Assembly: GCA_021846045.1 (NCBI GenBank)
Contig: JAJZCM010000003.1
Span: 23,604-87,603, forward strand
DNA length: 64,000 nt
Direction: 5' to 3'
From: a bacterium
GTDB lineage: Bacteria; Elusimicrobiota; Elusimicrobia; UBA1565; UBA9628
Numbering within the stretch: position 1 is the first letter of the stretch; the number at the start of each line of letters is the position of its first letter. The translations under genes and the position numbers were made by a program. Of this stretch, positions 14,960 to 60,616 are shown piece after piece. The notes beneath the pieces are model-generated. The model searched no databases, was not told the DNA's origin, and saw only the letters and a program-made list of their open reading frames with translations.

Positions 14960-14968
14960 AGCTCAATT

Positions 14969-15565
14969 TTGATAACCATGGACATAAAAGAGATCGAAAG
15001 AAAAATTCGCCATCTGCAAAGAGATTTTAGCGATACGATCTTTGTCCTTCAGAATAAGGGCTTAAATTTTTTTCAACGCGTTTGGCTTGCGGTGCTACTC
15101 ATCATATTTGTTCCCTATAAATTTTTTTATCAGACGATGAATAATGAAGTCGCGTCCCTTGAGATGAGAATTAATACAGCCAAGGCCGCCACCAAATACG
15201 CAAAAACCTATAACGACGCGATGGAAAATATTTCGGCCGTTAAACGCCACCTCCCGCCTCTGGGAAAGGAAGATAGCTGGTTGAGCGATGCCGCGATTTC
15301 TTCCCTTAAGAAAGAAGGTATCACTCCTGATTCCGTTTCCACCGTCCATCAGATTAAAAATGAAGAGTTAATCAAACAAACTATTTCCTTGGACTTTCGC
15401 GCGAAGTTCCCCGAGACTTTTGCCTGGATTTATCAAATCGAACATGATCGCTTTCTGATTCATGTTGATTCCTTGAGTATAAAGAAAGACGGATTGGATG
15501 AAAACAAGGTCCATTGCACGCTCTCAACTTTGATGCAATCGAACAAAGCTGGGGGGAACTCCTAG
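14969..15565 (+). CDS. pilO: Type IV pilus assembly protein PilO-like
   Basis: 198 aa. N-terminal TM helix (VWLAVLLIIFVPY) followed by a coiled-coil. Gene-order context PilM/N-PilO-PilP-PilQ. Confidence 0.55.
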   Translation: MITMDIKEIERKIRHLQRDFSDTIFVLQNKGLNFFQRVWLAVLLIIFVPYKFFYQTMNNEVASLEMRINTAKAATKYAKTYNDAMENISAVKRHLPPLGKEDSWLSDAAISSLKKEGITPDSVSTVHQIKNEELIKQTISLDFRAKFPETFAWIYQIEHDRFLIHVDSLSIKKDGLDENKVHCTLSTLMQSNKAGGNS

Positions 15566-15567
15566 CT

Positions 15568-16296
15568 ATGGCTAGAAAAAGCCCCGCTGGATGGCTGATT
15601 CTGGTTTTGGTCTTGGCCCTTCCAGGCTTGATTTTTTATTTTGGTTGGGTTCGTGTGAGAGAAAAGCGCGCATCTCGCTCTATTAGCGTGCCGCCTTCTT
15701 TGGGACAGGTTTTCAATTCCGCTCCTCCCGGGACGAGAGTTCTTAATTCACGTCCGGCAAAATCCATGGCGCCGGTTATTCCGACCGATAAATTCTCGGC
15801 CACAGCAAAAGCGCTTCCGGCTCCTGTTCCACATCCCGTGACTTCTCCTCAAGCGGCTACGCATGTGAAAACGCCGCTTTCCGAGCCCCGCGATCTCGCC
15901 AATGCCGGGAAACCCGTCTTGAAGACTCCTCCCGTGCTCGCCGCCAAGCCCGTTAGTGTGGAATCTCCAAAATTGACGGTTCCGCAGTTGAAAAGGGATC
16001 CGACTCTTTCTCCCACCGATAGAAAAGAAATCTACGATATGCTTCACCCTAGACCCAAACCGAGAGTCGTTCATCGGCGTTTCAAGAAAAAACGCGGGCC
16101 GCCAATTGAGACCCTCATTGATTTAGAAGGAATTATATTTGTCTCTCCCGCTAATGCAAAGGCGATTATTAACGGAAATATAATGAAGGTTGGTGGATTG
16201 GTTCACGGAGCCAAAATCATCAAAATTGAGAAACAGAAGGTGGTTTTTTCTTATCATGGAAGGCGAGTAATCAAAGTCATGAGTAATAAACTTTGA
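15568..16296 (+). CDS. pilP: Type IV pilus assembly lipoprotein PilP-like
   Basis: TM/signal segment, then a Pro-rich linker. The C-terminal beta domain IDLEGIIFVSPANAKAIINGNIMKVGGLVHGAKIIKIEKQKVVF resembles PilP/GspC. ATG at 15568 lies just after the pilO stop. Confidence 0.55.
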   Translation: MARKSPAGWLILVLVLALPGLIFYFGWVRVREKRASRSISVPPSLGQVFNSAPPGTRVLNSRPAKSMAPVIPTDKFSATAKALPAPVPHPVTSPQAATHVKTPLSEPRDLANAGKPVLKTPPVLAAKPVSVESPKLTVPQLKRDPTLSPTDRKEIYDMLHPRPKPRVVHRRFKKKRGPPIETLIDLEGIIFVSPANAKAIINGNIMKVGGLVHGAKIIKIEKQKVVFSYHGRRVIKVMSNKL

Positions 16297-16306
16297 GGAG
16301 AATATT

Positions 16307-18295: not shown

Positions 18296-18348
18296 GCCTT
18301 GACATATTCGAGAAACCCGCTATACTTCTAAAAGGGGTTAAATATTAA

Positions 18349-20103
18349 ATGGCTGATAGAGCGTTGCTTGCTGATGTGATGGTCGCTTCCGGCTCGCTGA
18401 CTTCAGAACAAAAAGATAAAGCCCTTAAAACTTCCCAAGAGGCTCAATGCAGCTTTGAAGAGGCGGTTATTAAGCTCGGTTTTGCCTCCGAAGGCGCGGT
18501 CACCACGGCTTTATCCAAACAGTTGGGGCTTCCCTTGGCTTCCCGTGAAAATAAGATTTTGATACCGGAAAAGGGCCAAGGGCTTGAGAAACTCATTCCG
18601 GAAAATTTTGCCCGGGAACATTTAACGATTCCTCTTTTTCTTGAAGACGGGACTCTGGGAATTGCGATGGTCGACCCCACCAACATCATGCTTCAAGATA
18701 ATATTCGAGTCCTAACTTCTAAAACCATTCACCCCTTCGTAGCGGCGAAAACCCAGATTTTAAAGGCCATTGATGAGCTTTATGGCGGCAACGGAGAAGG
18801 CGGTTTAATTGGGCGAACGCTGGAAGAAGGCAAGAAAAGCGGCGGCGCCGTCGCTGAAGAATCCGATTCGGCAGATGTGCGGGTTGACCTTGACAAAGCC
18901 GTTTCGGGCTTAAAAGACGCCCAAATTATTTCTCTTATTAACGCGGTTTTAAAACAAGCCGTGACTGAGAGGGCTTCCGATATTCATCTGGAGAGTTTTG
19001 ATAACCGGGCGAGTTTGCGCTTTCGCATCGACGGAATTTTGTATGAAAAGAGTTCTCCTCCGAAAGCCATGTTCTCATCCTTAGTTTCACGCATTAAGAT
19101 TCTTTCGAAACTCGACATCGCGGAAAGGCGTTTGCCTCAAGACGGAACCTTCTCAATTAAACTTCAAAACCGCAACATCGATTTGCGCGTTTCAATTTGC
19201 CCTACGGTTTATGGGGAAAAAGTGGTTATGCGTATTTTAGACAAGGGGGCGGTAAATCTCGACGTCGATAAAATAGGCTTTGAACCGAAACAGAAGGCGG
19301 ACTTTTTAGACGCCGCCCACCAGCCGCATGGACTCATTTTCCTGACCGGTCCGACCGGTTCCGGAAAAACGACCACTCTTTACTCCGTTCTCAATACGAT
19401 TAAAACCCCGGAACTTAATTTCATGACCATTGAGGACCCGGTCGAAATAAAGCTCGACGGTCTTAATCAAGTCCAAGTTCGTTCCGATATTGGGCTGACT
19501 TTCGCCGCGGCCCTGCGCTCCTTTTTGCGTCAAGACCCGGATGTGATTCTCGTGGGAGAGGTGCGCGATCAGGAAACGGCCCAAACTTGCCTGCGCGCGG
19601 CTTTGACGGGGCACTTGGTTCTCTCGACCCTGCATACCAATGACGCGATGTCAACCGTCGTTCGTTTAATCGATTTAGGCATAGAACCCTTTCTTTTGTC
19701 CGGAAGTCTTCTTTTGGCGGCGGCGCAGCGCCTAGTTCGCATTCTTTGCCCTCATTGTAAAACGCCCTATAAGCCGGATCCTTCTCAACTCGCGTCCGGC
19801 ATTAAAGAAGCCATGTTGCCTCAAGCTCAAATTCCCAATCTTGCCAATATCGTCTTCTATAAACCGCGCGGCTGCGATAAATGTTCCCAGACCGGCTATA
19901 TGGGCCGCCGGGCGATCTATGAAATTTACCGCATTATTCCTGAAATGCGGGAAATCATTTATAAATACGGCGGGGATTTGGCGCGGCTTCGAGAGGTGGC
20001 GGTTAAAAACGAAATGTGGGATTTAAGAGCCAGCGGCTGGCGAAAAGTTTTAGCGGGGCTCACAACGACGGATGAAGTTTTGTCGGTGACGATGAAGGAA
20101 TAG
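18349..20103 (+). CDS. pilB: Type IV pilus assembly ATPase PilB (GspE family)
   Basis: Walker A LTGPTGSGKTTTLYS, Asp box and His box. C-terminal tetracysteine motif CPHC...CDKC. Confidence 0.9.
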   Translation: MADRALLADVMVASGSLTSEQKDKALKTSQEAQCSFEEAVIKLGFASEGAVTTALSKQLGLPLASRENKILIPEKGQGLEKLIPENFAREHLTIPLFLEDGTLGIAMVDPTNIMLQDNIRVLTSKTIHPFVAAKTQILKAIDELYGGNGEGGLIGRTLEEGKKSGGAVAEESDSADVRVDLDKAVSGLKDAQIISLINAVLKQAVTERASDIHLESFDNRASLRFRIDGILYEKSSPPKAMFSSLVSRIKILSKLDIAERRLPQDGTFSIKLQNRNIDLRVSICPTVYGEKVVMRILDKGAVNLDVDKIGFEPKQKADFLDAAHQPHGLIFLTGPTGSGKTTTLYSVLNTIKTPELNFMTIEDPVEIKLDGLNQVQVRSDIGLTFAAALRSFLRQDPDVILVGEVRDQETAQTCLRAALTGHLVLSTLHTNDAMSTVVRLIDLGIEPFLLSGSLLLAAAQRLVRILCPHCKTPYKPDPSQLASGIKEAMLPQAQIPNLANIVFYKPRGCDKCSQTGYMGRRAIYEIYRIIPEMREIIYKYGGDLARLREVAVKNEMWDLRASGWRKVLAGLTTTDEVLSVTMKE

Positions 20104-20111
20104 GAGGCGGT

Positions 20112-21332
20112 ATGTCTCAGTTTTCCTATGTGGTTCAGGATCCCAGGGGGGAAGCTGTTTCCGGAACCCTTGAGGCGGGAGACGAAAATGAGGCGGTCGC
20201 TGCCCTGCAATCAAAGGGCTATTTTATTTTGTCCTTGTCTTCAAAGGATACAAAGACAAGCGCGAAAGGAGTCTCTTTATCTAAAGCGGCGAAAGTTGCC
20301 CAGCAAGACTTGATTTTTTTCTCGGAACAGCTGTCCACTCTTTTAACCGGCGGAGTCCCCTTGGTGCGCGCGTTGTCGTTGCTTGGCGAACATACCAATT
20401 CTCCGGGGCTTCATGCGGTGGTCGGGGCCGTGACTCAAGATGTGTCCCGGGGAACGGCGCTTTATAAAGCCCTGTCAAAACACCCCGCTATTTTCGATAC
20501 CCTATGGGTTTCCTTAGTTCAAGCGGGAGAAATGGGTGGGCAACTGCCCAAGGTTTTGCGGCAAATCGCCAATTACTTGACGGCCCAATCGGAACTCCGC
20601 GGGAAAATCATGACCGCCCTGGCTTATCCTGCGGTCCTTGCTTGTATGTCGGGAGGGGTCCTCGCTTTTTTCGTCATCCATATCGTCCCGGTATTTGCGG
20701 ATATCTTTAAACAATTCCATATCAAGCTCCCGGTTCTGACCCAAATGGTCGTTTCTACCTCAGAATTAATTGTTCATCATCTCGGGTTGATTATTTTTGT
20801 CGTCATCGGTGGGTATATGGCTTGGAAATCCTATACCTCGACCGACGCCGGAAAAATCGCCAAATGGAATTTGATATTTGGCGTTCCGTTCTTTGGCGAA
20901 TTCATCAAAGATATCCTGGTCGAAAGACTTTTAACGACGCTCTCGACCCTGATTGAAAGCGGCGTCAGTATTCTCAACGCCATCGCGGTCTTGGAAGGGG
21001 TTTTTTCGGCCAATATTATTTTCCAGATAGCCCTGTCCGCCATTAAGGTCGATGTCGCGGCCGGGAAATCCATATCAGCGGCTTTTAGAAAATCGGCGGT
21101 TCTTCCGCCTCTGGTCACCGAAATGATGTTCATGGGGGAAGAATCGGGAAAACTGCCGGATATGCTTCAGACCATGTCCGGATTTTATCGGCTCCAAATT
21201 GATCAATTTACGCGCCGTTTTACCGCCATTATAGACCCCATACTTGTCGTTGGCATTGGGGGACTCGTGGGAGTCATTGTCTTGGCGGTTTTCATGCCGA
21301 TATTTAAAATGTCAACGATGGGGGGAAAATGA
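20112..21332 (+). CDS. pilC: Type IV pilus platform protein PilC (GspF family)
   Basis: 406 aa with duplicated GspF domains and three TM segments. Position is immediately after pilB. Confidence 0.85.
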   Translation: MSQFSYVVQDPRGEAVSGTLEAGDENEAVAALQSKGYFILSLSSKDTKTSAKGVSLSKAAKVAQQDLIFFSEQLSTLLTGGVPLVRALSLLGEHTNSPGLHAVVGAVTQDVSRGTALYKALSKHPAIFDTLWVSLVQAGEMGGQLPKVLRQIANYLTAQSELRGKIMTALAYPAVLACMSGGVLAFFVIHIVPVFADIFKQFHIKLPVLTQMVVSTSELIVHHLGLIIFVVIGGYMAWKSYTSTDAGKIAKWNLIFGVPFFGEFIKDILVERLLTTLSTLIESGVSILNAIAVLEGVFSANIIFQIALSAIKVDVAAGKSISAAFRKSAVLPPLVTEMMFMGEESGKLPDMLQTMSGFYRLQIDQFTRRFTAIIDPILVVGIGGLVGVIVLAVFMPIFKMSTMGGK

Positions 21333-21333
21333 G

Positions 21334-21825
21334 ATGAGAGCGCGAGGCTTTACTCTTATTGAGCTTTTGGTGGTCATCTTAATTGTTGGAATACTCGCGG
21401 CCATTGGCTATCCCTCCTATATTCGCTCGATGGAGACCAGTAAGGCCAATGATGCCGTTGGATATTTGACGATGGCCGGAAACGCCGCTCGCATGTACGC
21501 GGTAGACCACAATGGATCTTACGTTCCAGCAGGCACAATTACCGATTCATGCGATGGCGTGCAAACTTGTCCGCAAGGGAATGTCTGTGACTTGGTTTAT
21601 TGCGGTTATATGCCAGCCGATAATTATAGCGAGAAGCCCTATACGATTACGATTCGAAATTGTAGTCCTAATACCTATTGTTCGCCATTGGCCTCTGTCA
21701 ATCGTCTCGGGGGCTCTTCCCCCGGCACAAACGCGTCCCCCTATGCATCTTGGGGCTACAACATTGATTCAAATGGAATCATTACTACGAACGGCGCCGC
21801 TGAGGTCCCACCCGTTCCGCAATGA
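21334..21825 (+). CDS. Type IV pilin (major pilin candidate), cysteine-rich
   Basis: Prepilin leader MRARG|FTLIELLVVILIVGILAAIGYPSY (class III signal peptide, Glu5). The C-terminal domain contains 8 Cys. RBS GGGGGAAAA precedes ATG 21334. Confidence 0.85.
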   Translation: MRARGFTLIELLVVILIVGILAAIGYPSYIRSMETSKANDAVGYLTMAGNAARMYAVDHNGSYVPAGTITDSCDGVQTCPQGNVCDLVYCGYMPADNYSEKPYTITIRNCSPNTYCSPLASVNRLGGSSPGTNASPYASWGYNIDSNGIITTNGAAEVPPVPQ

Positions 21826-21834
21826 CAGGCGACC

Positions 21835-22371
21835 ATGAAAGAAACAGGTTCGACCTTAATCGAGGTTTTAGCGGCCGTCCTTTTAACGGCTGTGATGACT
21901 TCCGCGGTTTTCAGCGTCGCTTTAGGCGCTAAGGGAGAATCAAAAATTACCGAAGAGCATAACTCGGCGTCTCAATGTATAACTCAACTGACCAATGAAC
22001 TCCATTCTTTCGTGACGGGCTATTGGAGTTACGGCACAAATTCTTTTAATCCCGTTATGCCGGAAATTTGTGGGCCGGAGTCTTCAGGGTGCGTTTATGG
22101 AGGAGGAAATTACTCGCAATGGACTTGGGCATCTTCAGGGGTCACGGATAGCTGTAGTGGTTGCTACGCGTTGTCGACCGGTGTGCATACCCTTACTGTT
22201 CAATCTAACGGCTTGACAGGTTTTAATGTGCCTTTTTGTATGCCTCCCTGGATGTGGCAGCCGCCGTACAGCGCGAATTTGTCCTACACGGTAACGTCTC
22301 CGCCGATTTCGTCAGGCCAACAAGTTGGCGGCCCCGGAGTTTCAGTCACGATAAACTGGAAAAATCAATGA
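21835..22371 (+). CDS. Minor pilin/pseudopilin (prepilin-type N-terminal cleavage/methylation domain), cysteine-rich
   Basis: MKETG|STLIEVLAAVLLTAVMTSAVFSV prepilin motif. Multiple Cys in the C-terminal domain. Confidence 0.75.
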   Translation: MKETGSTLIEVLAAVLLTAVMTSAVFSVALGAKGESKITEEHNSASQCITQLTNELHSFVTGYWSYGTNSFNPVMPEICGPESSGCVYGGGNYSQWTWASSGVTDSCSGCYALSTGVHTLTVQSNGLTGFNVPFCMPPWMWQPPYSANLSYTVTSPPISSGQQVGGPGVSVTINWKNQ

Positions 22372-23009
22372 TGAGAAAGGCTTTGGGCTTTACCTTGGTT
22401 GAGATGATTGTCGCTCTCCTTCTAAGCTCCATTGTGATGATCGGCCTTATTGACATTACCGCCAGCATGCTTATGCGCCATTTTGAGGGAATTCGACATG
22501 GAAAAATTGATAGCGAAACCCTTTATTCCTTGGATCAAATGAGACTTGAGCTGGAAGCCGCGACCTATTACTCTTACCCCAATACGTCGCAGCCTTACGG
22601 CATGGCCATTCAAGGCTGCGGAAATTATTCTTCAGCGACAGGAACGCAAATTTATACGGGCGCAGGGGCAACCATGAACTCCTTTGCCTATTGTGTTGAA
22701 AATCATTGCACAGGAACCAACCAAGCGTGTGACCCCTCCGGATATGGCGGACCTTATGACCTTGTGCGCTATTCTCAAACAGGAAGCTGTATTTCTCTTT
22801 CTTGCGGCGGCAGCGGCGGGCAAACCCTGGTTTACCAAAATGTCTACTTGGAACCAAGTTTTTCAAACCCTTTTTATCTCAATCCGCAATTCGGCGGAAT
22901 TGATTCGCATATGATCGTGGGCTATCCCGTTGAGACCGGAGTTGAAAAAACTCCGGCTTATTATCAGATTGACACGACTTATATTCCGGATACGGGGCGC
23001 CTGCAATGA
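22368..23009 (+). CDS. Minor pilin (PilW/GspJ-like), cysteine-rich
   Basis: Start at internal ATG 22368: MMRKALG|FTLVEMIVALLLSSIVMIGL prepilin motif. The ORF track entry 22236..23009 is 5'-extended over the previous gene. Confidence 0.7.
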   Translation: MMRKALGFTLVEMIVALLLSSIVMIGLIDITASMLMRHFEGIRHGKIDSETLYSLDQMRLELEAATYYSYPNTSQPYGMAIQGCGNYSSATGTQIYTGAGATMNSFAYCVENHCTGTNQACDPSGYGGPYDLVRYSQTGSCISLSCGGSGGQTLVYQNVYLEPSFSNPFYLNPQFGGIDSHMIVGYPVETGVEKTPAYYQIDTTYIPDTGRLQ

Positions 23010-35145: not shown

Positions 35146-37026
35146 ATGCCATTACCCTCTCAAAGAGGCAGACTTGCCTACAAGATTCTCCTCTGGTTTT
35201 TGATCATTTCCCTGATCCCGATGGGAGTCGCGGGTCTCTACTTGATTGATATTTCCCAGGCTTCCCTCCATCAGCAAATTTTGGGAACGGAGAAATCCTT
35301 GGCCCAAAGTTTTGCCGAAACGGTTTATAAATATATCGCGACCTATCGGGATATTTTGGAAGAATCTGCGGCATTGCCCCAATTTGCTTCTGGAAATAAG
35401 TCGGAAGAGCAATTTTATCTGAAGCATCTGATGAGTCTTCATGTCGCTATTCTTGAACTTTCCGTTCTGGATTCTTCTGGGCATGAAGTCATTCGAGAAG
35501 GGCGGTTCCTCGGGCCTAACCCGCAATTGCGCAACATGGAATCCGAGGGGTTTTTTGATACGGCTTTGGCCAGAGGGGAATTTATCGGCGCTCTTAAAAG
35601 GTTTCAAGGCATTTACCCGACGGTGACGATTGCGGTTTCCATTGGATCCGCGAAATCTGGGAAAATTCCGTCCGGGATATTGGCCGCGAAAATCAGCCTC
35701 AACGGACTTTCCTCCATGCTGTCGATGGAGTTTCCGCCTTCCAGCGCAACCTCGGCCGCCGTTGCCGCTCCAGATGGATTTTTAATCGCCCATTCCGATC
35801 CGGAAAAAGTCTATAAGCCTGATGCGCGCTTAAACAGTGAAATCCTGAAAATCCTTACGACCCAGGTCGCCGATTCCGGCGGCGGGGAAATGACTCTTTC
35901 AAACGGCCAAAGCTTTTTAAGCGCTTATGCCGACGTCAACGGTTTGGATTGGATCGTCTACGTTCAGGAATCCATTCAAGCCGCTTATCACACGGCCGCT
36001 CGAATGCGCTCTCAAATTCTGCGGCTTTTGATTTGGGTCATCATCGCTATTATCGTTTTATCCTTGGCTGTTTCCAGGCACATCACGCAGCCATTGCGCG
36101 CTCTTAAGGACGCCGCGCGGAAAGTGGGGATGGGCCAATTCGAGGATTTTCCAGAAGTGTTGACGACCAACGATGAAATAGGGGACTTGGCTCAGGCGTT
36201 TTTGTCCATGAGCGAGTCCTTAAAAGAGAAGACTGGCGAACTCGTCGACACCAAACAGGAGCTTGAGCGCTTGAACCGGACCCTTGAAAAACGGGTCGAA
36301 GCGCGCACGCGGGAGCTTAAAGCGGCCCAAGAAGAGCTCATTAAAAAAGAGCGTTTAGCCGCGATCGGGCAAATGGCTTCCGTGGTCGGACATGAGATCC
36401 GAAATCCGCTGGCCGTCATTAATAATTCCATCTACTTCATCAAAACAAAGTTGGCTTCCGTCTTGTCTCAAGACCCGAAAGTTTCCAAACATGTAAAAAT
36501 TATCGAGTCCGAGATTCAGCAAGCGAACGGGATTATCAACGAAATATTGACCTATTCAAGACAGCGCGAGCTTCAGCCTGAACCGGTTAGGCTCAATGAT
36601 TGGCTGGAAGAACTATTGTCGGTTTATCCGTTTCCGCCGCATATTACGCTTCAGAAAATTTTTGTTCCGTCGAATCCTCCGGTTGAGATTGATTTAACTG
36701 AAATGCAGCAGGCGCTTAGAAATCTAATTGGAAACGCTATTGAGGTGATGCCGGAAAAGGGAATTTTGGGTGTGAAGACCTTTTTGTCCCAAGCCAATAT
36801 GGCGGCGATTGAAATTTCAGATACCGGCCCCGGCATTCCGCAGGAAACATTGGAAAAAATATTTGCTCCGTTTTTTACCACCAAAGCTCGCGGGACGGGC
36901 TTGGGGCTTGCGGTCGTCAAAAAAGTAATTGATCGCCATGGAGGGAAAGTTGAGGTGGCAAGCATCGTCGGTCGAGGCACTGTTTTTCGCCTTCATATTC
37001 CCATTTCTCAAAAGGTTGAGGCATGA
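35146..37026 (+). CDS. Sensor histidine kinase (periplasmic Cache-like sensor, HAMP, HisKA, HATPase_c)
   Basis: Two TM helices flank a roughly 270 aa periplasmic domain. HAMP region, H-box AAIGQMASVVGHEIRNPL, and N, G1 and G2 boxes in the C-terminus. Confidence 0.85.
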   Translation: MPLPSQRGRLAYKILLWFLIISLIPMGVAGLYLIDISQASLHQQILGTEKSLAQSFAETVYKYIATYRDILEESAALPQFASGNKSEEQFYLKHLMSLHVAILELSVLDSSGHEVIREGRFLGPNPQLRNMESEGFFDTALARGEFIGALKRFQGIYPTVTIAVSIGSAKSGKIPSGILAAKISLNGLSSMLSMEFPPSSATSAAVAAPDGFLIAHSDPEKVYKPDARLNSEILKILTTQVADSGGGEMTLSNGQSFLSAYADVNGLDWIVYVQESIQAAYHTAARMRSQILRLLIWVIIAIIVLSLAVSRHITQPLRALKDAARKVGMGQFEDFPEVLTTNDEIGDLAQAFLSMSESLKEKTGELVDTKQELERLNRTLEKRVEARTRELKAAQEELIKKERLAAIGQMASVVGHEIRNPLAVINNSIYFIKTKLASVLSQDPKVSKHVKIIESEIQQANGIINEILTYSRQRELQPEPVRLNDWLEELLSVYPFPPHITLQKIFVPSNPPVEIDLTEMQQALRNLIGNAIEVMPEKGILGVKTFLSQANMAAIEISDTGPGIPQETLEKIFAPFFTTKARGTGLGLAVVKKVIDRHGGKVEVASIVGRGTVFRLHIPISQKVEA

Positions 37027-38165
37027 CGGAATCAAAAGTTCGCATTTTGATCGTCGATGACGACCCGCATATTCGCGAGTCTTTGTTTGACGTTCTTGAA
37101 GATGCCGGCTACGAGGTTTTTAAGGCATCCGGAGAAAAAGAGGCTTTGTCCGAGGTCCGAACGCATTCCTTTGACGTGATCCTGATGGATTATAACTTGC
37201 CGAACTCAACCGGAATCCAGGTCATCAAGAAAATCAGAAAAATCGATTTGAAAAGCCAGATATTGATGCTGACGGCGGATCGGACTCAAGAAACCGCGGT
37301 CATGGCCATTCAGGAATCCGTGGCGGATTTTTTGGTCAAGCCGGTCGACGTCGATCACCTCAAACACGCGATTTCAAACTCTCTGGAAAAATTGCGCCTG
37401 ATGCGGGAAAACGAGCGGATGTCTCTTGAATTGAAAAAAACCAACGAGAACTTGGAACATTTAGACCGGATGAAATCCAAGTTCCTTTCGATGTCTTCGC
37501 ATGATTTGTCGAACGCCTTGATGGCCCTTCAGGCCAGCTTCGAACTTCTTTCTCAAACAATCAATCCCTCCGAAGAACAGAAGAAAAGAATGACCGCGAT
37601 TTCTTCGAGCATTAGTCAGTTGACCCGCTTGACTGCCGATCTGGTCGATTGGGCTTCCATTGAAAACGGAAAATTCAGGATTGAGCGGGAAATGTGCAGG
37701 CCGGAGATCCTTTTGCAGGAAATTCTTCCGGGCTCTCAAGCGCGGGCGCAGGCGCGGGGGATTAAGTTCACGGAAAAAATAGAAAAGTCCTTGCCCGACA
37801 TCTACGCCGATAAAAGACGCATTTCCCAGGTTCTCAATAATTTGCTTGAAAATGCCATTCGCTATACTTCGAAGGGCGGGGAAATTTCAGTTTATGCGAT
37901 GCGGGCCTTAAATGAAAACTCAAAACCCGCCATTCGATTCGGAGTGAAGGACTCCGGAGATGGAATTTTGCCGACCGAACTCAATAAAATTTTTCAGAGC
38001 TTCTATCAAGGCCCGGATGCTTCGAAGGGTGGACGTCTCGGCTTGGGATTGGCCACCTCGAAAGAAATCATCGAAGCCCATGACGGGAAAATGGGCGTTG
38101 AAAGCGAGGGCATTGGCCACGGCGCGACCTTCTTTTTTACGATTCCAACCTCGAAAAATTCATGA
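37023..38165 (+). CDS. Hybrid response regulator receiver fused to histidine kinase (REC-HisKA-HATPase_c)
   Basis: Receiver ILIVDDD...DVILMDYNLPNSTG, then H-box MKSKFLSMSSHDLSNAL and ATPase G-boxes. The stop lies at the edge of the 66-bp repeat array. Confidence 0.8.
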   Translation: MTESKVRILIVDDDPHIRESLFDVLEDAGYEVFKASGEKEALSEVRTHSFDVILMDYNLPNSTGIQVIKKIRKIDLKSQILMLTADRTQETAVMAIQESVADFLVKPVDVDHLKHAISNSLEKLRLMRENERMSLELKKTNENLEHLDRMKSKFLSMSSHDLSNALMALQASFELLSQTINPSEEQKKRMTAISSSISQLTRLTADLVDWASIENGKFRIEREMCRPEILLQEILPGSQARAQARGIKFTEKIEKSLPDIYADKRRISQVLNNLLENAIRYTSKGGEISVYAMRALNENSKPAIRFGVKDSGDGILPTELNKIFQSFYQGPDASKGGRLGLGLATSKEIIEAHDGKMGVESEGIGHGATFFFTIPTSKNS

Positions 38166-38575
38166 CCGGCTGCGTTCCTTGCTCGCGAAGCGAGAGCGTG
38201 CCGAAACATCTTGAGAAAAGGCGTTATGATTCGGCCTGCGTTCCTTGCTCGCGAAGCGAGAGCGTGCCGAAACATCTTGAGAAAAGGCGTTATGATTCGG
38301 CCTGCGTTCCTTGCTCGCGGAGCGAGAGCGTGCCGAAACATCTTGAGAAAAGGCGTTATGATTCGGCCTGCGTTCCTTGCTCGCGAAGCGAGAGCGTGCC
38401 GAAACATCTTGAGAAAAGGCGTTATGATTCGGCCTGCGTTCCTTGCTCGCGGAGCGAGAGCGTGCCGAAACATCTTGAGAAAAGGCGTTATGATTCGGCC
38501 TGCGTTCCTTGCTCGCGGAGCGAGAGCGTGCCGAAACATCTTGAGAAAAGGCGTTATGATTCGGCCCGCCGAATA
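38158..38575 (+). repeat. Tandem array of about 6.3 copies of a 66-bp hairpin-containing unit (family 2)
   Basis: Unit ggcctgcgttccttgctcgcgaagcgagagcgtgccgaaacatcttgagaaaaggcgttatgattc is repeated at period 66 with at most 1 mismatch per unit. Each unit contains the stem-loop CTCGC-GAA-GCGAG. It is not CRISPR-like because there are no unique spacers. Confidence 0.9.
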
Positions 38576-40621
38576 GGATGGTTTGTCCTCCCTTTTTTCC
38601 TTGCTTCCTGCGCCACGGTCCAGGTCCCCATGTCGGTTACCTTTCCTCCGGCGGTTGATTTGTCTCCGTATCGGCGTTTTGCGTTCGGCGATATGAATGG
38701 AAACTCTGGGCGTCGTTTTCAGGACGCCTTGGCAACGGATTTGGCGCGTTCAAAAAAATTTAATTTCATCAATCGGGACCGGCTGAATGTGTTGGTCGCG
38801 GAATATGATTTGACGCAAACTCAAAATCCGACAAGCGCCAAGACCGGCCAAATCGCGATTGAAATTCATGATGCGGCGTTTATTTCTGGAACGATCAATA
38901 AAAATTACTATGAATTTGTGAGGGAGTCTCCAGATACCTGCCAGCGGAATAATCGCGCCCATCCGTGCCCTTTAAGAACGCGCGTGGGCCGGATTCGCAT
39001 TGGCGGACATTTGGATGTAATGGATGCGGCAACCGGACGATTGATCCATTCACAGACGATAGCCAAGGTGTGCCAAGCCCAAAGTCAAGCTAAAAATGCC
39101 TTTCCTGAAGCCATCAACCGAGCGCAGCTGGCTGAAAATTGCGTCAATTCCGCCGCCTATGATCTAGCGGCGCTTTTCTTGCCCTCCAGAAAAATGTTTT
39201 ATCCGGATTTTAAAAAAGTAGGAGATATCCCGGCTGTTGCCCAAGGAATCAAGGACGTGGAGGCCGGCAAAATAGGAGAAGCGGCCAAGGATTTTAGCGC
39301 GGCCCTTAAAGACCCGAAGGCGACGAGCCGGAATTTTAGTAAAAAATCCTTGTCAGAAATCTATTGGGACGGCGCGCTGGCCCAAGAATATTCCTGGCAG
39401 TTCGGCCCGGCCCTGGATTCCTTGAAAAAATCCTACGCGCTCAATCCCCTCGCGGAAACGCGAAAAGAGGAGTCGCAGCTTCTCGGCCTTGAATCCGCGC
39501 GGAGAAGGCTTTTGGGCGTTACTCCGCTCATGCTGGCGGTTGAGGGTGGAGCTTTCAACCAGGTTAAGGCGCTTCTTGAAAAAGGCGCGGACCCCAACGC
39601 TCAGGACGTTTCAGGCAACACCGCTCTAATGGGGGCGGCGCAAAAGCGGAATTTGCCCATGGTTCAAATTCTTCTTCGCTATGGGGCTTGGCCCAGCATC
39701 AGAAACAATCAGGGACTAAGCGCTCAAGACATGTCCCGGGATCAAAAAATTTCCAATTTGTTGAGCGAGAATTTTTCAAAACCATCCGCGCCGCGGCAAG
39801 AGGGGGCTTTGCCTTCTCCCAAGGCCGTGATTCATTCCGATGTGGATCAGGTTCCCTACCATTTTCCCGAAGACCCGTTTAAAATCGCCTTGGTCATCGG
39901 CATCGAGCATTATGAGAACAATCTCCCCTCGGCGGATTTCGCCGATCATGATGCCGAAGTCATGCGTGAACATTTAATGGCTTTAGGTTACGCTCCGCGC
40001 CACATTCATTGGCTCAAAGATCAGCAAGCGACTCGCGCCGCCTTGGTCAAGAATCTGGAAGGCTGGCTCCCACAAGTCGTTTCTTCCTCAGCGACCGTTT
40101 TTGTCTATTATTCCGGTCATGGGGCGGCGGACCCGGAAACTCATACAACCTATTTGGTTCCCGCAGATGGGGATTCCGGTTATCTTCAGGAAACGGCTTA
40201 TCCTCTCTCAAGGCTTTATTTGACTCTTGGAAAATTGCCCGCCAAACAAGTGATTGTCGCTTTGGACTCGTGTTTTTCCGGTAGGGGCGCGCGGTCTTTA
40301 TCTCCTGCGGGAGTGCGGCCTTTAGTCACTTTATCTCCGGTGGTTCCTTTAGTGGAAGGGGTGGTCGCGATGACGGCGGCTTCCGGGACTCAGATTGCGG
40401 AAGTTCTCAATTCCGAGGGACATGGCCTATTTACCTATTATTTTTTGAAAGGTCTTAACGGCCCGGCAAAAAACAAGTCGAATAAAATATCGGTGCAGTC
40501 GTTATACCGGTATTTGCGTCCGCAAGTCGAGGATGCGGCGGGAATGAAAAACCGCACGCAAACGCCCGAACTTTTACCCGGAAGCGTTGCCCATTCAAAT
40601 GCCATCGTTTTAGTTCCATGA
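38521..40621 (+). CDS. Lipoprotein with ankyrin repeats and C-terminal caspase-like (peptidase C14) domain; likely GTG start inside the last repeat unit
   Basis: Lipobox LPFFLASC after a basic n-region. Ankyrin repeats (TPLMLAVEGGAFNQVKALLEKGADPNAQDVSGNTALMGAA...). Caspase fold with catalytic dyad context YYSGHGA and ALDSCFSGRG. The ORF track version 38162..40621 reads through the repeat array. Confidence 0.7.
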
Positions 40622-41772
40622 ATGAAGATAGTCCTGATTTAAATATTCCGGTCGATTTCGATTTGGAATCCTATCGCTTTTCCTATCCTGAGGAATTGTT
40701 GGCCGCGAGTCCTCTTGATAAGAGAGATGATTGCCGCCTGTTGGTTTTAGACCGCTCTTTAGGAACGGTCTTTCATGAACAATTTCACTCGCTTCCCAAG
40801 CATCTCAAGCCCGGGGATTGCTTGGTTCTCAATGAGACTCGGGTCTTTTCCTGCCGCTTGGTCGGCAAGAAAAAGAGCGGCGGAAAGGCGGAAATTCTTC
40901 TAACCCGAGAAATCAGTCCCGGATACTGGGCGGCATTGGGTTCGGGTTTTAAGAAGGGGCATGAATTAATTTTTACGGGCAACCTGACGGGGCAAATTGA
41001 AGGGTTAAACGAGGATGGCGAGTATTTGATAAGGTTTGACCGCGAGGATATCCAGTCTTACATGGAGCGTAATGGTTTGCCGCCTCTTCCTCCCTACATT
41101 CTCAAAAAAAGAAAATTTTCGCCTGCGTTCCTTGCTCGCGAAGCGAGAGCGTGCGAGGGCATCTCGGGGAAAGATTTTAGGCACGCGCCCGTTGCGGAAT
41201 CATCCGAAAAAAACGATCAAGAATCTTATCAAACCGTTTATGCGCGGAATTTGGGCTCGATTGCCGCTCCCACCGCCGGGCTTCATTTTACGCCGGAGCT
41301 CCTTCGGGAAATCGAGCGCCAAGGAGTTTTCATTTGCCGGCTGACCCTTCATGTCGGACGCGGAACCTTTAAACCGATTGTTTCAAGAGACATTCGCCGG
41401 CATAAAATGCTTCCGGAATATTATCACGTCAATTTGGAAAATTCGCGGAAACTAAAAGAGGCTCAAGAACGCGGCGGAAAAATAATTGCTGTTGGCACGA
41501 CAGTCGTGAGAACCCTTGAGACCTTGGCCAAAAATCAAAACAGAGACGGTCCCATTTCTGAAATGTCCGGCTGGACCGATCTTTTTGTATATCCGGGGTA
41601 TCCGCTTAGGATGGCGTCGGCCTTGGTGACCAATTTTCATTTGCCGGAGTCGACCCCTCTTATTCTCGCCGCTGCCTTTGCCGGGCGAGAAAAATTGCTT
41701 AAGATTTACCAGGAGGCTTTTCTTTTGAAATACCGTCTCTTTTCTTACGGCGACGCAATGCTGATTTTGTAG
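40618..41772 (+). CDS. queA: S-adenosylmethionine:tRNA ribosyltransferase-isomerase QueA, carrying an in-frame insertion of a family-2 repeat unit
   Basis: QueA blocks LLVLDR, PLPPYI, YQTVYA...GSIAAPTAGLHFT and a C-terminal TNFHLPESTPLIL motif. About 30 extra residues (KKRKFSPAFLAREARACEGISGKDFRHAPVAESSEK) sit between PLPPYI and YQTVYA, encoded by the repeat at 41112-41175. Confidence 0.85.
   Translation: MNEDSPDLNIPVDFDLESYRFSYPEELLAASPLDKRDDCRLLVLDRSLGTVFHEQFHSLPKHLKPGDCLVLNETRVFSCRLVGKKKSGGKAEILLTREISPGYWAALGSGFKKGHELIFTGNLTGQIEGLNEDGEYLIRFDREDIQSYMERNGLPPLPPYILKKRKFSPAFLAREARACEGISGKDFRHAPVAESSEKNDQESYQTVYARNLGSIAAPTAGLHFTPELLREIERQGVFICRLTLHVGRGTFKPIVSRDIRRHKMLPEYYHVNLENSRKLKEAQERGGKIIAVGTTVVRTLETLAKNQNRDGPISEMSGWTDLFVYPGYPLRMASALVTNFHLPESTPLILAAAFAGREKLLKIYQEAFLLKYRLFSYGDAMLIL
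41112..41175 (+). repeat. Solo copy of the family-2 66-bp hairpin repeat inside queA
   Basis: ttcgcctgcgttccttgctcgcgaagcgagagcgtgcgagggcatctcggggaaag matches the tandem-array unit (38158-38575) over about 45 nt, including the CTCGC-GAA-GCGAG hairpin. Confidence 0.8.
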
Positions 41773-45003: not shown

Positions 45004-46013
45004 TTGACTTGGTTGAGAATGTGGGCCAAGCGTACCCCCGCCATCTGAAGTCGCTGATGGGCAATCGGCTGCATTTTTGCTTGGTAGTCGGCGGGTAGGA
45101 CCAGCGGTTGAGCGCTTGGCTGGCCGTTTAGCGATTTGTAATAGTCCGGATAAATCGTGTTTTTGGATATGTTGAAGCTCTCTCCGATCGCGTTATTGAT
45201 CGTGGTCTCAACGTCGCTGTCAATCCAGCTTGCCACTTCGTTTGCGGGGAGAGAATTCAAATCGGCGAGCAACTGCTGGGCTAGGATGTTTGCGGCGCCG
45301 GGTGTCTGGTTCTGCCAGCTGGTTTTGTCGATCAAGTCATCCCAGAGTTCGTGCAGCCGTTCAAGTTTGCCCTCAAATTGAACGTTTTCGGTATTGCCGC
45401 CGGCGTCATTATTATTTTCAGCGGTGTGCATGGGTTGATGCGCGTCGCCCACTAAATGCACGACATAAGACAGCGCTATAATTCTCCTATCCCGCCATAA
45501 GGCGTCCGCTTGCGCGGACTCCGCCGATGAGGCTTGCGGGTTTGGAGCCGGTCGTGGGGCGCTTAATTGGGATAGGGCGAACTTGATTTGCGCATGAATG
45601 CAATCCTGAACCGAGTCTCCCATAAACTGGGCGGTGGCTCCGGAGGCCTGCTTGTCGCAGTCCGGGTATTGATTGAGCTCATCGGTTGTCGGGGTCTGGC
45701 TGACATTTTGTTGGATCGGAATATTCGTGAAGTGCCATGAGCCGGTGGCCGCATCCTTTGCCAGCGTCCGCGAAAGAAGCCCTCCGAAGTTCGTGGGGCC
45801 ATAGCGCAGCGTATCCGGGTAGTTTGAAATGTCGGAAAGACTGACATTGGGCCCAAGAATGCCGGTGATAGCCGCTTGGGTTTGCGGATCCAAACGGGTC
45901 TGGGCGATATCGGAAATAGTTTCATGTCCTTCCGGTCCCCAGCTGAAAGCCGCGATAGGGCCAAAAAGAAGGGCTACCGCTAATGGCGCAATTCCTGCGA
46001 GTCTTTTTTTCAC
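44949..46013 (-). CDS. Secreted S1/P1-family zinc nuclease
   Basis: Signal peptide followed by the hallmark WGPEGHETI N-terminus of mature S1/P1 nucleases. Later His/Asp zinc ligands (HLVGDAHQPMH). Confidence 0.75.
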   Translation of the reverse strand: MKKRLAGIAPLAVALLFGPIAAFSWGPEGHETISDIAQTRLDPQTQAAITGILGPNVSLSDISNYPDTLRYGPTNFGGLLSRTLAKDAATGSWHFTNIPIQQNVSQTPTTDELNQYPDCDKQASGATAQFMGDSVQDCIHAQIKFALSQLSAPRPAPNPQASSAESAQADALWRDRRIIALSYVVHLVGDAHQPMHTAENNNDAGGNTENVQFEGKLERLHELWDDLIDKTSWQNQTPGAANILAQQLLADLNSLPANEVASWIDSDVETTINNAIGESFNISKNTIYPDYYKSLNGQPSAQPLVLPADYQAKMQPIAHQRLQMAGVRLAHILNQVNWDGDNKAPSQPSQGSNP

Positions 46014-46741
46014 TTTGAATTCCTCCCGACGATTCTTTCTAGATCTTCTTTTTGGAGAGTTTCTTTCTCCAAAAGTTCAGAGACGACGCTTTCAAGCGTT
46101 TTTCGGTGGGTCTCTAAAAGAGTTTTGGCTTTAGCGAGGGCTTCTCCTGTGAGTTTTTTGACTGCCTGGTCCATTTCACGGGCCGTTTCCTCGCTGTTTT
46201 TTCGCACTCCGGGAGCGCTGATGCCGAAAGTGAGAATGCCGACGGTTGCATCCATAATAAGGGGGTTGTTGCGGGTTTCAGCGGAGGGCAAAAATTCTGG
46301 GGCGGGTTTTTTCCAAGGCAGATTTTTACGGATATTCTCAATCAGGAGATGGACGCCTTTCAAATTCCCTTTGGTTGGACTTAGGGCGTTCCGGTTGTTT
46401 CCATTTTGGACTTGCGTCAGGGAAGGAACAAATCTTCCCTCAGCCTGTTTTTGATTTGTGGCAAAGACGTTGCCAGGAATTGGGGCTTCGGCGCGGAGTA
46501 TCTTTTTTTCCTGCCCTATAATGAGATGAAGCTCTTCTGGAGACTTTGATGGGGGAAGGGAACCCAATTCAGGCGTTTCAAAATTAATCTGGATGGGGAT
46601 GGCGGCGGTTTCCGTTCGTGGAGCCCCCGTGCGCTCGATTTCTTCCCCGGCGTGAAAAGCTTGCGCCAAACTTGGCATCGGCAGAAGCGCCGATAAGACA
46701 ATGGCTAAGGCTTGGTCCCTCAATCTTTTCACCATAGGCAT
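46010..46741 (-). CDS. Secreted hypothetical protein; the C-terminal about 60 aa resemble the C-terminal helical tail of FtsH
   Basis: Signal peptide MPMVKRLRDQALAIVLSALLPMPSLAQA. C-terminus ETAREMDQAVKKLTGEALAKAKTLLETHRKTLESVVSELLEKETLQKEDLERIV. Confidence 0.4.
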   Translation of the reverse strand: MPMVKRLRDQALAIVLSALLPMPSLAQAFHAGEEIERTGAPRTETAAIPIQINFETPELGSLPPSKSPEELHLIIGQEKKILRAEAPIPGNVFATNQKQAEGRFVPSLTQVQNGNNRNALSPTKGNLKGVHLLIENIRKNLPWKKPAPEFLPSAETRNNPLIMDATVGILTFGISAPGVRKNSEETAREMDQAVKKLTGEALAKAKTLLETHRKTLESVVSELLEKETLQKEDLERIVGRNSK

Positions 46742-58495: not shown

Positions 58496-60559
58496 CTATC
58501 GAATTCTGACTAAAGCAATTTTCCCCACCGGTTTCGGTTCCACCTGAGGGACCTGGTCGGCGTTGTTGTCGAGACTGGCGGCGGCCGGAACCTTTCGCTT
58601 GAGATATCGCGACAGGGATCCCACCGTCACATGGCCAGCCCTCTTTGCTCCTCCATCTATTCCCTTCAGAAAGTAGTAGGTGAAAAGCCCGTGACCAGTC
58701 TTCTCATCCGGCCCCGCCTCCTGGTCGGCTTTTGCGGCAGAAAAGGCGATCAGCTTCCCAGTCCGTGGAAAGCTCCCTTCCTTAACAACCGTGACAAGGG
58801 CGCGCACGCCCTTCCCTATGACGGAGCGTCCGGGCCTCCCGGAAAAGCAGGCGTCTAAAGCGATAAGGACCCGTTTCGCATGAAGACGGTTGAGATCATT
58901 GTAAAAGCTGGTTTCACGGTAGGCGGTGTCTCTTAGGTCGTTGGGATTTCCTCCGGATGGAACGAGGTAGGTGTGACCATGAGCCCCCGGAGCTCCATGA
59001 CCCGAGAAATAGACCCAGACGGTTGAGTCCGGCTTTGCGTTCCGCCCGAGCCAGCGTATCCCTCCCTTGATTCCACCCCGTGTGGCCGTGCCGTTTGTGA
59101 GACGTTTGATATGGTCGGGAGGAACCCCTAGGGCAATCAGTGTGCGATAGACTGCACGGGAGTCCCGATCGGCGAACTGGACGGACGGAAGACCCCCGGG
59201 GTATTTTTCCACGCCGATCACGAGGGCAAACATGTGGCGGTTCCTGGGGGCCTTGAAGGTCGGACGATCAACGGAGGAATGAAAGACGCGAGCCTTGGGC
59301 TTAGCCTTGCGTTTGCCAATCTTCCTCACCTGCCGCTCAAGATTGGACAGCGCCTCGATCACCTGTGGCGAGGCCTGAGAAGACTGCGCGGGTTGCGCCT
59401 GTTGCTCCGCGATGGCGTTTTTTATGAGGTTGGCAACTTTATAATGGTTTTCATCTTCAGCCCATGTAAGAGCGGTCCCGCCTTTTACATCTACGACATT
59501 GAGATCGGCCCCGCTGGCAATCAAGAGCTTGACGATATTGGCGTGACCATATGTCGCGGCCAATATAAGAGCGGTAGCACCGAATTGGTTATTTACGGCA
59601 TTGACATTGGCACCGGCGGCAATCAAGAGCTTGGCGATATCTGTATGGCCTTTTACAGCGGCATTCATGAGAGCGGTAGTACTGCCGTAGCCGTATTGGT
59701 TATTTGTGGCATTGACATTGGCACCGGCGGCAATCAAGAGCTTGGCGATATCGGCATGATCAGCAACCCCGGCACCTATAAGAGCGGTATTGCCAGATTC
59801 GTCCGCGGCATTGACATTGGCGCCGCTGGCGATCAAGAGCTTGGCGACATTGGCGTGACCATAGTACGCGGCATTCATGAGAGCGGTTCCGCCGTTTTTG
59901 GCTGTGGCATTGACATCCGCCCCATCAGCAATCAAGAGCTTGGCGATATCCGTATGGCCTTTTACCGCGGCATTCATGAGAGCGGTTATGCCGTCTTTGT
60001 CTGCGGCATTGACGTCGGCCCTGGCCTTGAGAAGAAGGGAGATTATGTTCGCATTACCATTCTTAGCCGCATTCATCAGCGCGGTGTTCCCAGCATTGCC
60101 CCTAGCATTGACATCGGCCCCAGCCTTGAGAAGAGTGGTGACCATGTCCGCATTACCATTCTCAGCTGCATTCATCAGCGCGGTGAACCCAATATCGTCC
60201 CTAGCATTGATGTCAGCCCCGGCCTTGATAAGAAGTGTGACCACGTTTGCATGACCAGTTGCAGCCGCAGCCATCAGCGCGGTGTTGTCATAAGGCTCGT
60301 CCACGGCATTGATGGAAGCCCCGGCCTTGAGAAGAGCAGCGACCACGTTCGCTTGACCATTCGAAGCCGCATATAGCAACGCGGTGAACCCAATATCATC
60401 CTTGGCATTGACGTCGGCCCCGGCTTTGATGGCTTTCTCAACACCACCAAGGTCTCCGTTTTGTGCCGCGGAAAAAAGAGCTGCAGACGCGCATCCCAAA
60501 ATGTTCAGGGCGCCCGCCAAAAACAAGATGATAAAGAACATTGAAAGACCTCTATTCAT
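58496..60559 (-). CDS. Secreted ankyrin-repeat protein with C-terminal caspase-like (peptidase C14) domain; paralogue of 38521..40621
   Basis: Signal peptide MNRGLSMFFIILFLAGALNILGCASA. At least 9 ankyrin repeats (GADVNAKDDIGFTALLYAA...). Caspase fold with YFSGHGA and ALDACFSGRPG dyad contexts. The ORF track start 60616 includes the conserved leader. Confidence 0.75.
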   Translation of the reverse strand: MNRGLSMFFIILFLAGALNILGCASAALFSAAQNGDLGGVEKAIKAGADVNAKDDIGFTALLYAASNGQANVVAALLKAGASINAVDEPYDNTALMAAAATGHANVVTLLIKAGADINARDDIGFTALMNAAENGNADMVTTLLKAGADVNARGNAGNTALMNAAKNGNANIISLLLKARADVNAADKDGITALMNAAVKGHTDIAKLLIADGADVNATAKNGGTALMNAAYYGHANVAKLLIASGANVNAADESGNTALIGAGVADHADIAKLLIAAGANVNATNNQYGYGSTTALMNAAVKGHTDIAKLLIAAGANVNAVNNQFGATALILAATYGHANIVKLLIASGADLNVVDVKGGTALTWAEDENHYKVANLIKNAIAEQQAQPAQSSQASPQVIEALSNLERQVRKIGKRKAKPKARVFHSSVDRPTFKAPRNRHMFALVIGVEKYPGGLPSVQFADRDSRAVYRTLIALGVPPDHIKRLTNGTATRGGIKGGIRWLGRNAKPDSTVWVYFSGHGAPGAHGHTYLVPSGGNPNDLRDTAYRETSFYNDLNRLHAKRVLIALDACFSGRPGRSVIGKGVRALVTVVKEGSFPRTGKLIAFSAAKADQEAGPDEKTGHGLFTYYFLKGIDGGAKRAGHVTVGSLSRYLKRKVPAAASLDNNADQVPQVEPKPVGKIALVRIR

Positions 60560-60616
60560 GGTTTCCTTTTGAAACATACTCTGGAGCCAACCATTTCCTC
60601 GCTTAAGCTCGGTCAT
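60557..60616 (-). promoter_or_regulatory. Conserved 5' leader (copy B), about 95% identical to 9244-9303
   Basis: ATGACCGAGCTTAAGCGAGGAAATGGTTGGCTCCAGAGTATGTTTCAAAAGGAAACC precedes the signal-peptide ATG. There are 3 mismatches to copy A. Confidence 0.5.

Follow-up and report, generated by a model that had tools for sequence, protein, structure and literature searches.

The DNA analyzed here is a bacterial stretch of 64,000 nucleotides (positions 23,604 to 87,603 of contig JAJZCM010000003.1, assembly GCA_021846045.1; hereafter the window) in which a 66-bp unit with two hairpins occurs six times head to tail within the start of a gene for an ankyrin-caspase lipoprotein and once more, alone, within queA. 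We consider it likely that this unit, the 66-mer, belongs to a small non-autonomous hairpin repeat family that is spreading, or has recently spread, in an uncultivated Elusimicrobiota-like clade. The genes and repeat features at the locus, all on the plus strand and numbered by window position, are listed below; ORF stands for open reading frame.

37023..38165: response-regulator/histidine-kinase hybrid gene, its stop overlapping the lipoprotein ATG, without repeat sequence (ORF list, Pfam)
38162..40621: ankyrin-caspase lipoprotein ORF, 819 aa as assembled (ORF list; Pfam Ank and Peptidase_C14)
38162-38164: ancestral ATG of the lipoprotein, overlapping the kinase stop (ATGA)
38170..38565: tandem array of six 66-bp units, inserted in frame after lipoprotein codon 3 (tandem repeat finding, core search, covariance model)
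38170, 38236, 38302, 38368, 38434 and 38500: starts of the six array units
38182..38194: CTCGC-GAA-GCGAG, the first unit's hairpin 1, within the invariant 5' half (unit positions 1-31)
38200..38235: hairpin 2 of the first unit, a 10-bp stem GCCGAAACAT / ATGATTCGGC with one A.A mismatch
38517..38530: candidate secondary start read from the sequence, GGAG at 38517-38520, 7 nt, then an in-frame GTG at 38528-38530, which would give MPKHLEKRRYDSARRIGWFVLPFFLASC
38600-38611: lipobox LASC (Cys codon 38609-38611)
40618..41772: queA, 384 aa, intact, carrying a unit in the linker that joins the PLPPYI motif to YQTVYA
41123..41188 (or 41122-41187, given a 1-nt junction ambiguity): solo unit of subfamily 2, in frame in queA, encoding (P)AFLAREARACEGISGKDFRHA; covariance model 82.3 bits

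Insertions in the lipoprotein gene and in queA

Tandem Repeats Finder (TRF) reports one strong array in the window, at 38170-38566, with a period of 66 bp, 6.0 copies and 99% matches. An earlier note on this DNA, made from the sequence alone, had described about 6.3 copies at 38158-38575; the repeat stands, and its extent is corrected to 38170-38565. A search of the window with the 32-nt core CTGCGTTCCTTGCTCGCGAAGCGAGAGCGTGC, allowing at most one mismatch, returned seven matches, the six array units and the queA copy at 41123, and the core did not occur in 100 shuffles. The 3' half of the array unit is found, within the window, in the array only. A covariance model was built from six units and run on the window and on contigs retrieved by translated-unit searches; in the window it recovered the seven known units and no others (the next match had E = 0.31), with each array unit scoring 89.5-91.5 bits.

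The array units are near-identical. Their sole difference is one loop base in hairpin 1, CTCGC-GRA-GCGAG, which runs A, A, G, A, G, G along the array, so that the stem-loop already noticed in each unit is borne out with either A or G in its loop, and the G variant is present in the last array units of every assembly examined. Two forward and two reverse frames are open, and +0 and -0 contain stops; the claim that the array is open in every frame therefore gives way to four of six, whereas the peptide repeat proposed for one frame is found as (CVPCSRSESVPKHLEKRRYDSA)n. In other assemblies of this species the array has four units (contig L001) or three (P0125, 753 aa), and the contigs L002 and L003 terminate within it. 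The array is real, and its length (3, 4 or 6 units) is assembly-dependent in a way that short reads cannot settle.

The position of the array relative to the lipoprotein gene becomes clear from three sister species, whose QueA proteins are 76% identical to that of the window overall and 81-82% identical over the aligned part. All three keep the gene order kinase, ankyrin-caspase lipoprotein, queA, tgt, and in all three the lipoprotein (MTxRR...lipobox) starts at an ATG that overlaps the kinase stop and enters directly into the signal peptide, with the N-termini MTRPRAGYFLIPFLFASC, MTFRRIVCFFIPLLLISC and MILRRWGRLLLPLAFISC. The array site is empty in these sister loci (L042, L045 and L046). The lipoprotein of the window instead reads MTG, then 6 x 22 repeat residues, then RRIGWFVLPFFLASC, and removal of 38170-38565 in silico restores MTGRRIGWFVLPFFLASC, with a junction ambiguity of 1 nt in the comparison of the filled with the empty site. 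Because the sister genes start at the ATGA overlap and removal of the array restores MTGRRIGWFVLPFFLASC, the array is placed inside the lipoprotein ORF, as an in-frame insertion after codon 3 that falls in the signal-peptide n-region. It neither precedes the gene as a leader nor lies between the kinase and lipoprotein genes, as had been proposed. By the same comparison, the ancestral start of the lipoprotein is the upstream ATG at 38162. Fragments of the unit had also been thought to end the kinase; its C-terminus (...SKNS) instead matches that of the sister species, and the array begins 4 nt past the kinase stop.

The A-to-G loop variant creates a GGAG 7 nt before an in-frame GTG, in the last unit and also in units 3 and 5. 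It is possible that the GTG in the last unit serves as an internal start, a candidate that would give a signal peptide of normal length. The lipobox is intact with either start codon (ATG 38162 or GTG 38528), and, provided that cleavage takes place at the Cys in the ordinary way, the mature lipoprotein would be unaffected. In one sister species (L046, 9787-9843, minus strand), the orthologous ankyrin-caspase lipoprotein carries a degenerate 57-nt unit of independent origin that has lost hairpin 1; this copy is in frame in the C-terminal part of the protein and explains a length of 707 aa compared with 687 aa. As judged from these alignments, the ankyrin-caspase lipoprotein gene is one that has been hit independently twice, in two lineages.

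The solo unit in queA was likewise anticipated by the earlier note, and alignments confirm that it sits in frame within the gene; rather than occupying 41112-41175 and adding about 30 residues, it lies at 41123-41188 and adds exactly 22 (66 nt). A check of queA orthologues from close relatives had been suggested, and all three sister species are without the segment: the nucleotide alignment has an exact 66-nt gap at the unit in each, and in the protein alignment the 22-residue segment is present only in the window sequence. QueA homologues at about 50% identity are named Elusimicrobia or Elusimicrobiota, which sets the organism of the window among Elusimicrobiota-like metagenome-assembled genomes. 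Near-identity of the queA copy to the array unit is confined to the 5' half, and the 3' half represents a second subfamily. The structure of the T. maritima enzyme leaves a spacing of only about 4 residues between PLPPYI and YQTVYA, and query residues 163-200 are passed over in the alignment to PDB 1VKY. An AlphaFold2 model of QueA has pLDDT (predicted local distance difference test) values below 50 over residues 158-215, a stretch that also takes in conserved residues. These structural comparisons hint that the insertion site may be an exposed, tolerant linker.

Anatomy and distribution of the family

The unit divides into two halves that behave differently. Positions 1-31 are invariant, except for position 6, in all but the most degenerate copies, and hairpin 1, which lies in this half, stays invariant across 13 of 14 distinct family members; from the remaining one, the degenerate L046 copy, it is absent. 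Hairpin 2 is formed by positions 31-40 paired with positions 57-66, so that the two hairpins are internal and stand side by side. In hairpin 2, compensatory changes occur at 8 of the 10 pairs and 88% of cells are paired, with G-U pairs very rare, compared with 25-43% paired when the registers are slid by 1-3 columns. The alignment used for these counts was model-fitted, and an ungapped alignment shows the same picture. By hairpin 2 the copies fall into two subfamilies, the array type and the queA type, each found in at least two species. Units begin with CTGCG... and end with ...CGGC or CGCGC. This pattern of conservation suggests a recognition site in the invariant half and, in the covarying half, a requirement for structure that would apply on either strand.

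The 24 nt TTCCTTGCTCGCGAAGCGAGAGCG of the invariant core also form the tip of another dispersed repeat, a hairpin about 70 nt long that occurs in AT-rich, Firmicutes-like metagenome contigs (L008-L041). Examples of this long hairpin are found at L010 9290-9380 and L020 8280-8370; its outer stem covaries (7 pairs), and many of its copies are located at contig ends beside promoter-like sequences. The scan pattern for the long-hairpin family was the core of the 66-mer, and conservation of the tip there is thus partly by construction.

The earlier note suggested that the unit be looked for elsewhere, and it is present at further loci both in the same genome and in other genomes. In the metagenome-assembled genome GCA_027330785.1, which belongs to the species of the window, it occupies six loci on three contigs. 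The loci are as follows.

GCA_027330785.1: the lipoprotein gene; queA; the C-terminal tail of mnmG; a gene for a 994-aa hypothetical protein (opposite strand); ispG, twice
L050: internal in a gene for a RumA-like methyltransferase; in the predicted signal-peptide n-region of a secreted protein; intergenic, 4 nt past a stop codon
L051 49-119 and L058 10001-10071: a gene for a short-chain dehydrogenase (SDR), the unit directly after codon 2
L015: a gene for a 564-aa protein, of which the unit forms the last 22 codons
L006: three copies, upstream of a gene for a secreted protein or within its 5' end

The host ORFs are intact with their in-frame copies in the lipoprotein, queA, mnmG, ispG (both copies), 994-aa, RumA-like, SDR, secreted and 564-aa genes. 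Two of the insertions, at lipoprotein codon 3 and at SDR codon 2, directly follow a start codon that overlaps an upstream stop (ATGA). Copies in signal-peptide n-regions number at least two (the window and L050) and possibly three (L006, where the start codon is a candidate). The unit is exactly 66 nt long in every non-degenerate copy except L006 4647-4709 (63 nt), and a tendency to stand head to tail is seen also in L006 (two units) and L015 (1.15 units). Across loci the unit is read in all six frames, which would yield peptides such as CVPCSRSESVPK and AFLAREAR, and its orientation relative to the host gene is the same in seven cases and opposite in four. Because all six frames and both orientations are used, the unit is best described as a nucleotide-level element, not as a peptide module or a strand-specific RNA signal, as far as sequence comparison can tell.

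The number of copies found depends on the query. With a 382-aa chimera of unit translations, MnmG, the SDR, the 564-aa protein and the RumA-like protein were recovered, and a 1126-aa translated query recovered nothing beyond the lipoprotein, the 994-aa protein and IspG; the peptide census is a lower bound, since copies unlike the query are hidden by the E-value ceiling of 10. A scan of GTDB species representatives matched one other genome only (L006), with the window's own species unmatched. Among IspG relatives, which are at most 53% identical, both inserts fall in variable regions, and this imprecise comparison is compatible with insertion. A weak model match at L058 3381-3443 was rejected because it is a GC-rich hairpin that lacks the core. 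Viral contigs gave no match to the core pattern, nor did plasmids or phages to a two-unit blastn query, and Rfam scans of the window and of 12 related loci were empty at the repeats. A full-text literature search for the core sequence or for Elusimicrobia repeats found no description of the family.

Gain, loss and competing explanations

Precise presence or absence of the unit can be seen between strains. Contigs L050 and L056 are 98% identical in DNA over 4.6 kb. Two precise 66-bp indels distinguish them, the first in intergenic DNA and the second within the RumA-like gene, and they have a third copy in common; the RumA-like proteins are identical at 443 of 449 residues apart from a 22-aa gap. 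The junction ambiguity is 1 nt at the RumA-like gene and at queA, and 6 nt at the intergenic site, where the ambiguous GGCCTG equals the unit-to-unit junction (GGC/CTG). No target-site duplication is present in the comparisons of filled with empty sites at queA, the array, the RumA-like gene and the intergenic site. Terminal inverted repeats are likewise absent, the left end CTGCGTTCC not being complementary to the right end ...GATTCGGC. The 4 nt that end the left flank differ among copies (ccgg, tcgc, ccgc, aata, ttcc and others). At 11 of 14 loci an AAAA tract is found on the strand of the unit, no more than 36 nt 5' of it, compared with a window background of 27% (binomial p ~1e-4); the 14 copies are from the window, L006, L015, L046, L047, L050, L051 and L054, and the pattern was noticed post hoc. 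This enrichment may reflect either a target preference or an effect of composition.

These observations lead us to regard the family as probably a new selfish repeat that behaves like the Rickettsia palindromic elements (RPEs) and is still mobile. With a length of 22 codons and few stops, a copy that lands in a permissive coding position would leave the gene intact and be translated along with it. Permissive positions would include the n-region of a signal peptide, the tail of a protein or an interdomain linker, and selection would leave only the copies at such places. For example, one unit would have landed after lipoprotein codon 3 and then been amplified in tandem, and another would have landed in the queA linker. 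Growth of the array might proceed by slippage or by unequal recombination between head-to-tail units, and the array could be harmless, as the signal peptide, cleaved at the lipobox, would carry it away. Movement itself may depend on a trans-acting enzyme that recognizes the invariant hairpin-1 half on folded, probably single-stranded DNA.

In its two-part anatomy, in gain and loss that are precise at 66 bp and in having neither terminal inverted repeats nor target duplications, the family resembles elements that move by single-strand transposition (IS200/IS605, REP/RAYT). IS200/IS605 elements of the "peel and paste" type, like the short palindrome-associated elements derived from them, lack terminal inverted repeats, produce no target duplication, have hairpins near both ends, and are gained and lost precisely; they insert 3' of a fixed tetra- or pentanucleotide and need the Y1 transposase TnpA. 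The 66-mer shares the first set of properties in full, with its hairpins near the ends. However, its flanking bases are not constant, and no TnpA is present in the loci examined. IS200/IS605 would thus serve as an analogy for movement and not as a family to which the 66-mer belongs, and hairpin-dependent transposition of single-stranded DNA is a tentative mechanism to which we give somewhat less than an even chance. A bolder proposal, which we regard as unlikely, is that the 66-mer is actively moved by an enzyme new to such repeats and keyed to the invariant 24-nt tip, that this constitutes a cross-phylum system, and that the 22-codon length is adaptive for intragenic life. If this were true, the presence of the same tip in both hairpin families would point to a cross-phylum mobilization system keyed to one hairpin.

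Several points weigh against a mobile, translated element. No transposase, recombinase or reverse transcriptase was found in the roughly 250 kb of loci examined, and no consistent target tetranucleotide is present at the left-flank ends. The strain polymorphisms could be explained by precise deletion instead of insertion. We infer translation of the inserts solely from the intact ORFs, and all of the data are short-read metagenome assemblies. Most of the additional loci were found through searches for the element itself, and the apparent density of copies is thus biased. Finally, folding of a single unit is no more stable than that of shuffled sequence (z -0.1 to -1.5). Of the conserved structure for which the unit was to be examined, the covariation of hairpin 2 is upheld and exceptional folding energy is not, and because the folding energy is unremarkable, it is covariation that carries the structural argument.

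That covariation is also what makes a structured RNA worth considering. The unit could be a cis-acting signal for stability, translation or termination that is translatable by chance, with the array acting as a regulatory 5' leader, and the idea of a structured RNA that is also translated had been raised in the earlier note. Hairpin 2 is indeed kept through compensatory changes, the G loop variant does place GGAG 7 nt ahead of an in-frame GTG, and repeats of the REP (repetitive extragenic palindrome), ERIC and BOX types act at the RNA level (PMC3733652). Nevertheless, an RNA signal is difficult to reconcile with the mixed orientation of the copies relative to their host genes (7 same, 4 opposite), with their presence within coding sequence in all six frames and at the termini and linkers of unrelated genes, or with the near absence of G-U pairs and of any Rfam match, and the array is downstream of a conserved start codon. 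We therefore leave this explanation only a small chance.

A selected protein module deserves little more than a slight chance. One could imagine a basic peptide repeat with CxxC, able to bind metal or nucleic acid, that several proteins have acquired, and the array, mnmG and both ispG copies do share a CVPCSRSES... frame with CxxC. However, with two open forward frames, four copies in one frame are expected about one time in eight, and the other copies use five other frames to encode unrelated peptides. Conservation is at the nucleotide level and extends to the intergenic copy, and the insert in QueA is modeled at pLDDT below 50.

It is very improbable that only ordinary features are involved, namely a lineage-specific variable loop of QueA and an unrelated minisatellite near the lipoprotein gene. 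The length of the QueA linker does differ among family members, but one stretch of 31-33 nt is common to both places and to no fewer than ten further loci in unrelated genes and genomes, the insert length of 66 nt is near-constant, and there are indels between strains. A degenerate or orphan CRISPR-like array, in which a hairpin repeat of about 34 nt ending in GAAAC would alternate with a 32-nt "spacer," is hardly credible: the window's units, with their 66-bp period, a hairpin inside and GAAAC at positions 34-38, resemble what is generally known of class 1 CRISPR repeats, but the "spacers" are identical within the array, homologous between genomes and subject to compensatory pairing, solo units reside inside genes, GAAAC is absent from other family members, and the Pfam listings contain no Cas domain in the window.

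Relation to known repeats and neighboring features

A dispersed selfish repeat of this kind finds its closest behavioral counterpart in Rickettsia, where RPEs insert in frame in many metabolic genes (PMC10969869). Like RPEs, the 66-mer is a short palindromic repeat that is found in frame in unrelated housekeeping genes and carried as an extra peptide segment, and it too has several subfamilies and differs in presence or absence between related species. Its in-frame copies occur in unrelated intact genes and its insert is absent from the orthologues of close relatives, which places it in an RPE-like behavioral class. RPEs are about 100-150 bp long, restricted to Rickettsia and reported to carry a CGTC end tag (PMC3733652), whereas the 66-mer has two side-by-side hairpins, an invariant 5' half, head-to-tail arrays, untagged ends and an Elusimicrobiota-like host; neither CGTC nor GACG is present in the window units or at either end of any copy examined. 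A sequence relationship to the RPE families is not evident, the two being set apart by the descriptions of RPEs.

REPs are palindromes of 20-40 bp with a GTAG or CGTC tag, and some of them are intragenic (PMC3733652). REPs, together with their associated tyrosine transposases (RAYTs), share with the 66-mer a small GC-rich hairpin repeat without terminal inverted repeats, in which pairing is kept while stem sequence varies. Unlike the 66-mer, which is untagged and forms direct tandem arrays, REPs are mostly found outside genes and often as inverted dimers. There is no GTAG or CTAC tag at the unit ends, and the Pfam listings, with about 110 kb of the species covered, contain no Y1_Tnp domain or RAYT gene.

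The earlier note had likened the element to a MITE (a miniature transposable element with inverted repeats) or to an intein-free insertion tolerated in protein loops. The part of this that survives is a small, mobile-type repeat in frame; the comparison with MITEs fails in the absence of terminal inverted repeats and target-site duplications. Bacterial MITEs such as Correia, ERIC and Coxiella QMITE1/2 are also non-autonomous dispersed repeats that can overlap or extend ORFs, as described for the QMITE1/2 elements (PMC5896051). However, MITEs have terminal inverted repeats with direct-repeat target duplications and are usually 100-400 bp in length, and the 66-mer has neither defining feature. 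What sets the 66-mer family apart is its size of 66 bp, its two adjacent hairpins, its untagged ends, its direct tandem amplification and its host lineage.

To our knowledge, selfish DNA in frame in essential genes has been documented in depth mainly for Rickettsia. The 66-mer extends RPE-like behavior to a distant uncultivated lineage and to an element that is much smaller and exactly 22 codons in length, and the gain or loss polymorphisms between strains suggest that the family may still be active. Its anatomy separates an invariant half, which would serve recognition, from a covarying structural half. The family could thus be a tractable system in which to study how tiny repeats move without terminal inverted repeats or target duplication, and which positions in proteins tolerate random 22-residue inserts. 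There are also practical consequences. The repeat breaks short-read assemblies, it leads to inflated or mis-started gene calls, such as the 819-aa "lipoprotein" and a shifted SDR start, and it invites confusion with a CRISPR array or a 5' leader.

The window and its relatives hold several other features. A second ankyrin-caspase gene is located at 58496-60616 (minus strand), where TRF periodicities of 99 bp and 111 bp (59492-60284) correspond to ankyrin repeats of 33 aa each and do not mark another repeat element. At 46010-46741 (minus strand) there is a 243-aa FtsH-like remnant that matches only the end of Peptidase_M41, in contrast to an intact 923-aa AAA+M41 gene in a sister species (L045 15811-18582), and in the window a BrnT/CopG-like toxin-antitoxin pair adjoins the remnant. 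A cluster resembling type IV pilus or type II secretion systems extends over 11737-23009 and includes secretin, T2SSE, T2SSF and several N-terminally methylated pilins. Downstream of ispG, two assemblies of the same species differ (L053/L055 17877-22040 versus L054 17747-22040), with an SMC-like ATPase and a ResIII/restriction-endonuclease gene in one and pterin-binding, transketolase-like, E1 dehydrogenase and lipoyl synthase genes in the other. As read from gene content, this difference is a strain-level island or a rearrangement.

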